A stretch of DNA of 44,514 bases, from positions 1-44,514 of the forward strand of contig JALOAB010000002.1 in NCBI GenBank assembly GCA_023229045.1. Reading direction: 5' to 3'. The position numbers were made by a program, and so were the translations under genes. Below the pieces are notes generated by a model, which saw only the letters and a program-made list of their open reading frames with translations, was not told the origin of the DNA and did no database searches. The stretch comes from Fidelibacterota bacterium. GTDB lineage: Bacteria > Fidelibacterota > UBA2242. Of this stretch, positions 32,437-35,325 are shown piece after piece (positions within the stretch are counted from its first letter, which is position 1; each line of letters starts with the position of its first letter).

Positions 32437-32889
32437 TCACCTTTCAAATAACGCCTTCTGGTTTTTCTTGTGCCAACGCCATAACGCCTTTTTATTTCTG
32501 TTAAAATAAGGGGCATAATTTAATGATGATTCCCTAATCTCGACTATGCCGTTATCAGCCACGCTCAATAAGCCAATGCCCTGTTCCATAAATTTATAAC
32601 AAGTTTCGAGTTTTATTTTATCGACTATGACTTTTGGCATTGCTGCGTAAACTTGATTTGCGTATCTTCGGTGATTGCGGCATTGCATAAGCACACCTTG
32701 AAAGTCCCTGATTTTCAACTCAATGGCAAATACACGCGCAAGCTTAGGTATGCGCCTGCTTGTTTGTGGGTAAAACTCAAAGCCGACTACATCACAGTTA
32801 TTCATCGACCAACATTCGTGGGCAACTTCAAGACCTTGGTCAGCAAGCCACTTTATAATATGCAACCGTAAATCCTTTTCCGTTGTCAT
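32437..32889 (-). CDS. PD-(D/E)xK nuclease, MmcB-like
   Basis: CDVVGFEF...FAIELKIRDFQGVLMQCRNHRRYANQVYAAMP resembles the D...E(I/L)K..DF......Y....Y.A.P signature of MmcB-type proteins (from memory). Confidence 0.5.
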   Translation of the reverse strand: MTTEKDLRLHIIKWLADQGLEVAHECWSMNNCDVVGFEFYPQTSRRIPKLARVFAIELKIRDFQGVLMQCRNHRRYANQVYAAMPKVIVDKIKLETCYKFMEQGIGLLSVADNGIVEIRESSLNYAPYFNRNKKALWRWHKKNQKALFER

Positions 32890-34415
32890 TACTTCACCTC
32901 AAACAGAGCCTTCTGGCCCTGACGCTGTTCCTTTACTGGTACGCCGGTAGATACTTCGGTTAGCCTTGTGGACGCAACATCGGTTATATACTTTGGGTTT
33001 AATTCTATGCAGACATACTTTCGGCCTAACTGAGCTGCTACCTTACCTGTGGTGCAACTTCCCCCGAAGCAATCTAAAACAATTCCATCTTTCGGGCAGC
33101 CCGCTAAAATGCAGGGCGTTACTAATTCTTCTGGATATACAGCAAAATGTACACCATTGCCAGTATCAACAGCTATATTCCAGACTGAACGGCGGTTGCG
33201 CTTTTCGTAAGTTTTGCCAAGTATCTCATTATTGCCAGAATGAATTGTGTTGCCATCAGCGTTGGGAATTGCACCGGAACCGTAAATTGCAACCCGACCC
33301 CGAAATCTTCTACCTGAATAGCTTTCCTCATCAACAGAATCTTCTTTTATGGCCTCGTGGTCATAAAAATACTTAGCCGACTTAGACAGTAGGAAAATAT
33401 ACTCGTGAGACTTGGTGCATCTATCCGTAACACTTTCCGGCATAGGATTGTTTTTTGACCATATTATGTCTTGTCGTAACCAATATCCTTGTTCGTACAT
33501 TGTTTTGGGTTCATCAAAATCAATAATGGCTTGCTGTCCGTTATGTAGTGCCATTAAAGATTGGTGGGCTTTTTCGGCTTTATCTCCTGACGATGGACAC
33601 CCCAAGAGTAATCTGGCTTCTTGTTTTTTGCCAACAAGATAAGGATATATCTCTTGAACAACTTCTCTGCATTGATTTGACCGTAAGTTCCATCTATACA
33701 GAGGTATGTTGCGTTTCTTTAATTTAGTTTCTCGTTCAACACAACATATACTACCCATACCTGTTATTACTAAACATCGTTTCACAATAGATTCGTGTGT
33801 ATTTGCGACCTCAAGACCAGCCCCATAACTATCATTTCTTCTGATATATCCTTGTCCATTGCTTTGGCCTGTCTTTCGCTTATGGATAAACATACACCCT
33901 TCACCATCTATCATTGCTGCCAACCATATTCTGTCGGCCTCATTTTTAATCTTGCCAATATAATATGGTTGTTGTAATGCCTTTGCCACAGCCCAAGGAA
34001 TACCACAGAGGTCTTTAGGTTTGAGTCCCATCGGGCAACCTGTTCTTGCTTGATACCCTTTGCTAAGTTTGCCGTGTTTCCAACCAGTGTCATCATCTTT
34101 AGTGCCAACGGCGTGTTGTGTGGCATAGCTATCCCCTAAATTCAGCCACAGCGTTCCTTCTTTTTTCAGAACCCTTTTAACTTCCCTGAAAACATTGACC
34201 AGATTATTGACGTATTCCTCCGGTGTTTTTTCTAATCCTATCTGGCCGTCAATGCCATAATCTCTTAATCCCCAGTACGGCGGACTGGTAACTACGCAGG
34301 ATATAGAATTATCAGGAAAGCCCCTTAATACGTCCAGAGCATTGCCGCAGATAACCATTCCGCTATCGTCCCTGTAAACTACCTCGCCGCTATTAAATTG
34401 GGTCTGCCAGTTCAT
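32889..34415 (-). CDS. Beta-class N4/N6 DNA methyltransferase interrupted by a LAGLIDADG-like domain
   Basis: Motif IV VVTSPPYWG, DLCGIPWAVAKAL, then an insert of about 160 aa (WLAAMIDGEGCMFI...), then GYWLRQDIIWSKNNPMPES and SHEYIFLLSKS, and motif I VLDCFGGSCTTG. The start at MNWQTQF (GAAGG 10 nt upstream) is preferred over the track start at 34463. Confidence 0.8.
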   Translation of the reverse strand: MNWQTQFNSGEVVYRDDSGMVICGNALDVLRGFPDNSISCVVTSPPYWGLRDYGIDGQIGLEKTPEEYVNNLVNVFREVKRVLKKEGTLWLNLGDSYATQHAVGTKDDDTGWKHGKLSKGYQARTGCPMGLKPKDLCGIPWAVAKALQQPYYIGKIKNEADRIWLAAMIDGEGCMFIHKRKTGQSNGQGYIRRNDSYGAGLEVANTHESIVKRCLVITGMGSICCVERETKLKKRNIPLYRWNLRSNQCREVVQEIYPYLVGKKQEARLLLGCPSSGDKAEKAHQSLMALHNGQQAIIDFDEPKTMYEQGYWLRQDIIWSKNNPMPESVTDRCTKSHEYIFLLSKSAKYFYDHEAIKEDSVDEESYSGRRFRGRVAIYGSGAIPNADGNTIHSGNNEILGKTYEKRNRRSVWNIAVDTGNGVHFAVYPEELVTPCILAGCPKDGIVLDCFGGSCTTGKVAAQLGRKYVCIELNPKYITDVASTRLTEVSTGVPVKEQRQGQKALFEVK

Positions 34416-34434
34416 TACTTTAACCTTCGTTCCT

Positions 34435-35325
34435 TTAACACCCGAAATTATCGCTCTCTGCATACTCCATCTGGAGCATTACCGTTAAATCGTCAATCCA
34501 CTTCTGCAATAAAGCGTGATAGGATATACAGCCCCAACCATCATCGCCCCATTCCTCTCCCCAGCTATTCGGGAATATGAAAGCACCTTTTGTATGAACA
34601 TTTGTCTTGGTGTTGCAGATTACCTTATTATCGTCATAGTCCATCAAGGAAACTTCGTGCAGGCCAAGTAATGTGTCAGACGGCAATGGTACTGGTATTG
34701 CGCCGGGGCTATCCCCCAACTCCATAGACGACCTTATCTGTATGGCCGCTGCGACTGGTATGCCGTCCGCAATATACTCTTTAGCCTTTTGAAGCAGGGA
34801 TTGGCGGTTTATTTTAGGCGGGTCAAGCCTAAACCATTTTAGGGATTCATAGTTATCCGCTACGGCCAACTGCATAGCTGTTAATTCCTCGTCAAACCGG
34901 TTGTTATTGTCGTGGTGGTATTTTAGTTCAAGTGCCCCGAATTTCCTTTGTGCGTCCCTTGAGGCCGAGCCTGTCGAGCCTGTATCACCCGTGAGATTCA
35001 ACAGCCATCGGGAACATTTATAATTAAAAAGTGCCGAAGCGTGGAAGTCTTTGCCTTTTGTCCGCTTAATGAAATACCCCGTGTCGTAATACATCGTCCG
35101 TCCGGTACAAGAGCCTAACTCTCTTTGGTTGACTATCGGAGGGCAATAGACCCTATTCTTTGTCTTAGTAGGAATAGACTTACCGAATGGCAGTTTAAAC
35201 TTGGAAAGCATATCCGGCACAGAAACTTTTTTTGGTATAACAGTTTGCTCGGTATAATCATCTTCTGTCCGCACGTCAGGTTTTCTGCCCAGTCCTACCT
35301 TTTGTCCGTTAGATAATGTAATCAT
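34435..35325 (-). CDS. Papain-family (C1) cysteine peptidase
   Basis: All catalytic blocks present: VNQRELGSCTG (Gln, Cys), GLHEVSLMDYDD (His), FPNSWGEEWGDDGWG (Asn-Ser-Trp). Confidence 0.75.
   Translation of the reverse strand: MITLSNGQKVGLGRKPDVRTEDDYTEQTVIPKKVSVPDMLSKFKLPFGKSIPTKTKNRVYCPPIVNQRELGSCTGRTMYYDTGYFIKRTKGKDFHASALFNYKCSRWLLNLTGDTGSTGSASRDAQRKFGALELKYHHDNNNRFDEELTAMQLAVADNYESLKWFRLDPPKINRQSLLQKAKEYIADGIPVAAAIQIRSSMELGDSPGAIPVPLPSDTLLGLHEVSLMDYDDNKVICNTKTNVHTKGAFIFPNSWGEEWGDDGWGCISYHALLQKWIDDLTVMLQMEYAESDNFGC

Follow-up and report, generated by a model that had tools for sequence, protein, structure and literature searches.

Homing endonuclease genes are thought to survive within essential or useful genes only where an intron or intein provides for their removal. 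A 'second', non-intein LAGLIDADG domain has been described in the PF01555 methylases of nine cluster-F actinophages, for example Mycobacterium phage Taj gp79 (Gosselin et al., 2023; PMC9957025), and this 'seemingly lone LAGLIDADG' domain 'appears to be vertically inherited' (Arsenault et al., 2025; PMC11855218). Here we describe an in-frame LAGLIDADG domain within a PF01555 beta-class DNA methyltransferase (MTase) gene of an apparent phage genome of about 44.5 kb, assembled as part of a Fidelibacterota bacterium (GCA_023229045.1; contig JALOAB010000002.1, positions 1 to 44,514) and referred to over its whole length of 44,514 nucleotides (nt) as the window. The insert, Q165–Q325 (161 amino acids, aa; window 33489..33971), is identified by fold and profile searches as a complete single-motif I-CreI-like LAGLIDADG domain, and it appears to be a selfish mobile element, tolerated by the host protein as a permanent additional domain.

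The resemblance to Taj gp79 is close in architecture. In both cases an in-frame LAGLIDADG domain lies in a phage N6_N4 methylase with no detectable intein splicing domain or intron, and the domain is predicted to fold separately while the methylase fold stays intact. The two differ in that the Taj domain follows directly on motif IV DPPY (aa 63–160), whereas the domain described here occupies the loop between motifs VI and VII, and in that the Taj domain matches Pfam LAGLIDADG_1 (PF00961) at 7e-16, whereas the window insert has no Pfam match. The methylases themselves are 24% identical, and a tblastn search with the window insert (E ≤ 1e-3) matched no record of a Mycobacterium phage. The architecture is the same and is already published; the different site and endonuclease lineage indicate that its origin in the window is independent. 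We found no description of the present insert family in the literature. What is new relative to the precedent is a much larger family, with at least 53 clusters at 50% identity, and population-level evidence of gain or loss with co-conversion: the actinophage domain comes from nine related phages and was judged vertical, whereas here there is an occupied/empty polymorphism with donor-type flanks.

The original prediction, made from the DNA alone, was that two blocks normally adjacent in PF01555 enzymes are separated by about 160 aa, with boundaries at 33489–33971, and both parts of it were borne out. The blocks DLCGIPWAVAKAL and GYWLRQDIIWSKNNPMPES are both present and lie 161 aa apart, while in P0002, a 349-aa homologue that shares 97% identity overall and 98% over the MTase core columns, they are adjacent (ALQADGWWLRQD); the split therefore reflects a true insertion, not an artefact of alignment, and the predicted coordinates correspond exactly to Q165–Q325. 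Sequence comparison thus confirms, far beyond chance, that the MTase is split by an insertion. The insertion haplotype was assembled identically in independent runs and in one Joint Genome Institute contig. Of the 120 proteins that match the insert-free allele best, 118 have the length of an insert-free protein (297–426 aa), and the insert is absent from all 71 of these that were placed in alignment A5.

Pfam match, motif order and fold all fit the assignment of the host gene to the PF01555 beta-class N4/N6 DNA methyltransferases. Residue numbering throughout is that of the longest open reading frame (ORF; 32889..34463, 524 aa), which, like all features of the gene and insert given here, is on the minus strand. 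PF01555 (N6_N4_Mtase) matches this ORF in two stretches (E = 3.5e-47), the second of which resumes at profile position 67, residue 324. The model of the MTase matches the folds of M.BceJIV, CcrM, M.PvuII and M.RsrI (E about 1e-11 to 1e-12), and its sequence matches 2zie, 6pbd and 1boo in the PDB. The SPPY motif (aa 60–63; 34275-34286) is N-terminal to the S-adenosylmethionine (AdoMet) motif I DCFGGSCTTG (aa 464–473; 33045-33074), and the order of motif IV (S/D)PPY before motif I FxGxG is the circular permutation typical of the beta class. We take SPPY as motif IV to point to N4-cytosine specificity, and on this motif knowledge the enzyme probably modifies N4-cytosine. In an alignment in which 119 of the 120 homologues bear the insert, SPPY, the DxFxGSxTT motif I and the other MTase motifs are at least 90% conserved, which argues that the MTase is under selection with the inserted domain in place.

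The insertion point falls in the loop between helix 155–164 and strand 328–336, between motifs VI and VII at PF01555 profile position about 67–70, and corresponds in sequence alignment to the Q112–G115 loop of CcrM. Given the topology of the Rossmann-type fold, this helix-to-strand loop should lie opposite the active-site edge. At its two ends the insert carries conserved linkers, QPYYxGxIKxExD on the N-terminal side (33933..33971) and IDFxxPxxMYEQ on the C-terminal side (33489..33527), from which the chain returns to MTase strand 328–336. DSSP analysis of the AlphaFold2 models places short strands at Y167–Y168 and at 323–324, that is at opposite ends of the insert and within these linkers. 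We infer from the models that the two strands pair as a two-stranded neck; such a neck would bring the ends of the insert together and would therefore fit insertion into a loop.

That the inserted segment has a single-motif LAGLIDADG fold, as had been proposed, was substantiated by structure prediction and by profile searches. In the whole-protein AlphaFold2 model the predicted local distance difference test (pLDDT) score is 86 overall and 93–98 over the insert, with the order H175–188, E189–196, E212–221, H224–234, E238–244, E250–261 and H263–275 followed by two further helices. Modelled on its own (pLDDT 95.9), the insert has the alpha-beta-beta-alpha-beta-beta-alpha arrangement, with DSSP assigning H11–24, E25–32, E48–57, H60–70, E74–80, E86–97 and H98–111. 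All of the top 50 Foldseek matches of the insert model in the PDB are LAGLIDADG enzymes, and LAGLIDADG enzymes were also returned with the full model; the lead matches are the homodimeric, single-motif enzymes I-CreI, I-CvuI and I-MsoI (E about 1e-6, template modelling score 0.5–0.65; for I-CreI E = 1e-6 and 0.62–0.64). In a library of viral structures (BFVD), the top matches were free-standing phage LAGLIDADG enzymes.

Profile searches with the insert alone, one of the checks proposed at the outset, gave a divided answer: Pfam returned nothing, while in PHROGs the insert matched phrog_5046 at 4e-18, a family of free-standing phage proteins of about 160 aa labelled 'HNH endonuclease'. A profile built from the insert family, both embedded and free-standing relatives, matched I-MsoI (9e-19), single-chain I-CreI (5e-16) and I-CvuI (4e-13), aligning WLAAMIDGEG with LAGFVDGDG of I-CreI and I-MsoI and YPYLVGKKQEARL with PFLKLKQKQANL, and 14 of 29 alignment members match PF00961. 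The best match of a single-sequence PDB search with the insert was I-OnuI at E = 0.23 only. With single-sequence searches of Pfam and the PDB empty or weak, recognition of this homology therefore needed the family profile and fold comparison. An exhaustive HMMER search with the insert (E ≤ 1e-3) returned 1378 protein clusters, which fall into three groups: domains embedded in proteins of 400–750 aa, free-standing proteins of about 150–170 aa, and proteins of about 300 aa with two matched stretches, which are Pfam LAGLIDADG_1/_3 proteins.

The active-site residues expected of such an enzyme have been kept. The LAGLIDADG motif WLAAMIDGEG (aa 180–189; 33897..33926) contains E188 (codon 33900-33902), which corresponds to the catalytic D20 of I-CreI, and K279 (K115 of the insert; codon 33627..33629), in YPYLVGKKQEARL, corresponds in the profile alignment to the active-site Lys98 of I-CreI. 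Both are invariant in 119 of 119 insert-bearing MTases, in which the insert is 51–79% identical except in the near-identical P0001, and both remain at least 90% conserved once free-standing relatives are added. N221, equated with I-CreI Q47 in an alignment made by eye, is also at least 90% conserved. Domesticated LAGLIDADG domains, such as those of WhiA and the maturases, commonly lose the catalytic acidic and lysine residues. From this conservation the endonuclease is likely to be active. The insert thus shares with I-CreI, I-CvuI and I-MsoI its fold, a length of about 150–160 aa, a single LAGLIDADG motif, the acidic catalytic residue and the active-site lysine. It differs from them in that those enzymes are free proteins encoded by self-splicing introns of rRNA genes, whereas the domain here is embedded and has no start or stop codon of its own; sequence identity is 12–18%, and the putative target site has no obvious pseudo-palindrome. 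The free-standing phage LAGLIDADG proteins of the phrog_5046 type (CcrRogue, Xylella phage Bacata, cyanophage PP) are homologous over the whole insert at 26–32% identity, but are encoded by genes of their own, complete with start and stop codons, and are frequently annotated in error as 'HNH endonuclease'.

Evidence for mobility comes from a near-identical allele that lacks the insert. Contig L001 (7.1 kb), which encodes P0002, has the same gene order as the window and is 98.4–98.9% identical to it on both sides of the insertion. Window positions 33450-33992 (543 nt) are represented there by 66 nt, a net difference of 477 nt or 159 aa, and the joint 33449→33993, with the same replacement, occurs on metagenome contigs. 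The empty site is at about 5170–5260 of L001. The flanks of the insert are far more divergent than their surroundings, with 22 of 63 nt substituted relative to L001 (21 nt upstream and 42 nt downstream) and nine synonymous codon changes, against a background of 1.3% (binomial P about 1e-25). These differences comprise 10 of 21 nt and four synonymous codon changes in the 5' flank (33972..33992) and 12 of the 42 nt compared, with five synonymous changes, in the 3' flank (33450..33488), and both dense flanks resemble co-conversion tracts. The window residues A158, K161, Y327, S336 and N338 in these flanks are found in 7–53% of insert-bearing and 0–7% of insert-free alleles; L001 has the usual insert-free residue (74–100%) at four of the five positions, and its Ala at 336 is found in 36%. 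The window MTase core has a mean identity of 58% with insert-free proteins and of 53% with other proteins that bear the insert, and so is nearer to the former. With donor-type flanks set in an insert-free-like core, the simplest history would therefore be import of the insert, together with short donor flanks, into an L001-like gene. An insert with co-converted donor flanks is the classic signature of homing by double-strand-break repair.

Both alleles circulate together. On metagenome contigs, occupied and empty alleles coexist in runs X3, X4 and X5, with the occupied allele alone in X1 and X2 and the empty allele alone in X6; X3 and X5 are landfill runs, and in the groundwater run X4 the empty joint has a depth of about 59 and the insert contig a depth of 7.1. 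A third haplotype (L163/P0001; European Nucleotide Archive ERZ27247771 k141_227049) is only 56–90% nt-identical to the window in the 5' part of the MTase gene and, from window 34016 downstream and including the insert, has two differences over about 1,100 nt. The 24-nt block AAAGACCTCTGTGGTATTCCTTGG, encoding KDLCGIPW (33993..34016), is common to all three haplotypes in a three-way alignment, and both observed recombination breakpoints adjoin it. As the L163 joint and the L001 joint are both at this block, two independent breakpoints abut the insert.

In its wider distribution the insert keeps to one PF01555 position. Eighteen long proteins (440–916 aa) with an insert relative and a PF01555 match were tested and all are methylases; two tested long proteins that match LAGLIDADG families only are ordinary endonucleases. 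In 10 of the 18 the PF01555 profile resumes at position 69–70 directly after the insert, and the other eight are uninformative, their best stretch lying elsewhere. On contigs (viral, metagenomic and one from a metagenome-assembled genome, MAG) the insert is flush with the MTase part or parts in 22 of 25 loci, and 15 of these 22 hold both MTase parts immediately adjacent; the exceptions are two loci with gaps and a free-standing copy, L089. Sequence comparison thus shows that the insertion site is fixed even among highly diverse PF01555 genes. Among 185,579 species genomes scanned, a single close match to the embedded form turned up, in a Chryseobacterium MAG at 50% identity, and a tblastn search with the insert (E ≤ 1e-3) found no embedded form in cultured phage records; the embedded form is essentially viral or metagenomic. 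A degenerate-pattern scan of metagenomes gave 13 loci, and at none of these was a near-identical insert set in a different background. A neighbour-joining tree of the MTase core, built from 61 sequences with the insert and 73 without it, shows 12 changes of insert state. Identity of the insert is weakly correlated with that of the core (r = 0.19), and in some pairs of sequences the cores are 42–47% identical and the inserts 74–82% identical. This distribution fits occasional transfer over much vertical descent. Apart from L163 (99–100% identical), all insert relatives are too diverged for analysis of the ratio of nonsynonymous to synonymous substitution (dN/dS).

We note several features of the insert relatives. 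The free-standing ORF on L089 (2818–3645; IMGVR_UViG_3300028610_001120) is 51% identical to the insert and has no MTase flanks, yet the linker motifs are retained in it (GIKNRDERIWLAA... and ...IDFSEPVPGY). This ORF could have escaped from an embedded element or could represent the ancestor of such elements, and, with the linkers retained, the embedded element could be an intermediate between free-standing endonuclease genes and host-embedded elements. The embedded inserts of P0019, P0024, P0067 and P0080 have about 12 extra residues in the beta1–beta2 hairpin (for example GTPNYSTYTRQDGTTTEYDRKNDTF); by analogy with other LAGLIDADG enzymes, in which this hairpin is in the DNA-contacting sheet region, they may be variants with altered target contacts. 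A possible further example of the MTase–LAGLIDADG architecture among deposited proteins is the BFVD match A0A516LD89, a viral UniProt protein of 533 aa, whose alignment with the model of the insert extends over 162 columns. In many records the free-standing relatives, among them proteins of Caulobacter phage CcrRogue, cyanophage PP and Streptomyces phage Samisti12, carry the annotation 'HNH endonuclease' or 'HNH homing endonuclease', and this HNH label on LAGLIDADG proteins of the phrog_5046 lineage looks like a systematic mis-annotation.

The original prediction left the choice between a domesticated recognition module and a nested homing element. The invariant catalytic residues, fixed site, polymorphism, donor-type flanks and breakpoints together favour the second over the first, and we consider it probable that the insert is, or very recently was, a mobile homing element that does without splicing and is not purely a domesticated domain. 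We propose that the element began as a free-standing gene for an I-CreI-type endonuclease, which became fixed in the reading frame of a phage MTase at a permissive loop. The endonuclease would be expressed as a domain of the MTase fusion, the host tolerating it in a loop on the two-stranded neck. During co-infection the fusion protein would presumably dimerise through its LAGLIDADG helices and could cut the uninterrupted site ...GCTTTACAG|GCTGATGGTTGG... in the MTase genes of related co-infecting phages, within or near the conserved coding sequence for ALQ/GW(W/Y)LRQDIIW. Repair of the double-strand break from the occupied allele would then copy in the 477-nt element with its short donor flanks. 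Retention of the domain in the mature protein, with the MTase still active, is the state we would expect from the intact reading frame and motifs. The stronger form of this proposal, that the endonuclease is active while a permanent domain of a functional MTase, perhaps dimerising together with it, and is homing in nature, a widespread third lifestyle beside introns and inteins, we put forward more tentatively, at slightly less than an even chance.

A number of observations weigh against a homing element. Whether the insert was gained by homing or lost by recombination with an empty allele, the same pattern would result, so that the direction of change is one we infer; the near-identical occupied/empty pair was found only once, and the third haplotype is represented by one contig of 1557 nt. 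The core tree lacks support values and its insert-bearing sequences are largely clustered, so that much of the distribution may be vertical, and the higher conservation of the insert in some pairs could come from stronger constraint and not from transfer. In the L082 lineage the insert is fixed in four soil runs, in which a second occupied/empty polymorphism was not found. The sites recognised by homodimeric LAGLIDADG enzymes are usually pseudo-palindromes; at the empty site the best palindromic symmetry matched 5 of 11 half-site positions, no better than background, which is mildly unfavourable. The insert itself lacks a direct match in Pfam, and what is said of the function of the insert and of the fusion protein is deduced throughout from sequence and models.

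Much of this would be accommodated by a different history, in which an old LAGLIDADG insertion no longer homes and persists by vertical descent as a domesticated accessory module, binding or nicking DNA and altering the targeting or activity of the MTase, with the polymorphism arising from ordinary recombination among mosaic MTases. The clustering on the core tree, fixation in the L082 lineage and lack of a palindrome at the empty site are in keeping with this, as are the divergence of the insert (51–79% identity), which is not near-identical across hosts, and the highly mosaic character of phage MTases, many contigs of which diverge at 34154-34157. The actinophage precedent, moreover, was judged to be vertically inherited (PMC9957025, PMC11855218). 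What such a history does not readily explain is the invariance of E188 and K279 across 119 sequences, or the exchange of a segment consisting of the insert with 21 and 39 nt of donor-type flank inside genomes that are 98.5% identical. Also against it are the coincidence of two independent breakpoints at the boundary of the insert, the invariance of the site among MTases that are very divergent and the presence of both alleles within single samples. We therefore regard this alternative as unlikely.

A further possibility is that the domain is removed from the protein, an unknown splicing chemistry or proteolysis excising it and freeing the endonuclease. LAGLIDADG inteins such as PI-SceI and those of actinophage methylases also are in-frame mobile insertions in conserved motif regions with flank co-conversion, and spread by means of their endonuclease. 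The window insert differs from them in having no Hint domain and no terminal nucleophiles, with glycine at +1. Hint and intein families of Pfam gave no match to the MTase ORF even at E ≤ 10; the insert begins Q165–P166 and ends E324–Q325, with no Cys, Ser or Thr as its first residue or at +1, where G326 does not vary in any of the three whole-protein alignments (of 9, 121 and 134 sequences). The LAGLIDADG fold and linkers account for all 161 aa, a length equal to that of the free-standing relatives, and there is therefore no room for a splicing domain. An intein is thereby ruled out, in agreement with the initial view that splice-junction residues are absent and the segment too short for Hint. 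For non-canonical removal there is no direct support; a pairing of the end strands would bring the ends together, and a gene for a papain-like peptidase lies immediately upstream. However, the L001 phage carries the same peptidase gene without the insert, and simple proteolysis would split the Rossmann-like core between helix 155–164 and strand 328–336. Removal at the protein level is thus very improbable.

Equally little speaks for removal at the RNA level, with the insert an intron or bypassed in translation and never present in the MTase protein. Phage homing endonucleases are often intron-encoded. In the ShiLan domain and other out-of-frame HNH insertions, which like the present element are splicing-free, leave the methylase frame open and are believed to be accommodated as a loop or domain, a sequence that reads in frame can be misleading (PMC11855218). 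There the HNH enzyme is in another frame and the in-frame translation is disordered, whereas the in-frame product of the window is a well-folded endonuclease, and the AlphaFold2 model of the uninterrupted chain is a confident one. For none of the four alternative-frame ORFs within and around the insert was any homology found, so that a hidden out-of-frame endonuclease of the ShiLan type was rejected. A scan of 32800-34600 against Rfam (E ≤ 1) found no intron or other significant RNA family, all 483 nt of the insert are coding, and amino-acid conservation runs through both junctions; group I and group II introns are ruled out on these grounds, and removal at the RNA level altogether is scarcely credible. 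A separately translated endonuclease is also unlikely, as no usable internal start or stop codon is present: the only in-frame ATG/TTG codons of the insert, L181 and M184, are both within the LAGLIDADG helix, and no stop follows the domain. Having no start or stop codon of its own, the insert is therefore translated as an internal domain of the MTase.

Finally, although variable DNA-recognition inserts are a feature of beta-class MTases and the LAGLIDADG fold is itself a DNA-binding one, it is most improbable that the segment is the standard target-recognition domain of this MTase subfamily, a reading against which the first analysis had asked for a check, since it is absent from the allele that is 98% identical over core columns, from the great majority of homologues that are 55–64% identical and, by length, from 118 of the 120 proteins that match this allele best, and lies between motifs VI and VII in a loop that should be away from the active-site edge, whereas the beta-class recognition position is after motif VIII, between motifs VIII and X, where the variable region at aa about 375–425 is found.

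The remainder of the MTase gene and its surroundings can be described briefly. The longest ORF begins at 34463, within the upstream gene. The likely start is ATG 34415. A GAAGG ribosome-binding site precedes this codon by 8 nt, an ORF beginning here is clear of the upstream gene, and the start called for P0002 agrees; from the ribosome-binding site and lack of overlap, the real product is therefore probably of 508 aa. The N-terminal MTase segment (33972..34415) contains motif IV, the TLWLNLGDSY block, a hypervariable loop and helix 155–164 (GIPWAVAKALQ), and the C-terminal segment (32889..33488) contains motifs VII–VIII (GYWLRQDIIWSKNNPMPES, KSHEYIFLLSKS), the target-recognition-like region and AdoMet motif I. 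The loop at aa about 113–150 (window 34044-34160) has a pLDDT of 54–57 and varies in length and sequence among homologues, and many metagenome contigs share the conserved TLWLNLGDSY block before diverging at 34154-34157. This suggests that the segment is exchanged modularly among MTase alleles, possibly in connection with specificity. Near the 3' end of the gene, a cluster of five nt differences at 32916-32922 (QRQGQK versus QRAGQK) sets the haplotypes of the window and L163 apart from that of L001, X4 and X5 in otherwise identical sequence.

The insert interior (window 33567-33851) is matched exactly by two contigs from X17, a wastewater 'RNA-Seq' metagenomic run, which hints that the region is transcribed; DNA carry-over is also possible, and neither X17 contig spans a junction. 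Directly upstream of the MTase gene (34435-35325, minus strand) is a gene for a 296-aa protein with a weak match to papain-family cysteine peptidases (PF00112, 5e-5), a type of gene that is unusual for the early/replication arm of a phage and that is also present on the insert-free sister contig L001. The window as a whole encodes a large terminase, a portal protein and a DnaC-like loader in two divergent gene arms. No tRNA was found in a search of the window, and megablast with 19.5 kb of it gave no match.

The near-isogenic occupied and empty alleles of the window and L001/P0002 are a natural pair that makes this case experimentally tractable, and a compact natural fusion of meganuclease and methyltransferase with defined linkers is of possible interest for the engineering of meganucleases and of targeted methylation. 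If the interpretation is correct, a folded LAGLIDADG enzyme can stay in its host protein and yet spread, so that a permissive surface loop would suffice, and the known ways in which selfish elements colonise genes would be extended. It would also help to explain the mosaic nature of phage MTases, which are key counter-defence genes against restriction systems.

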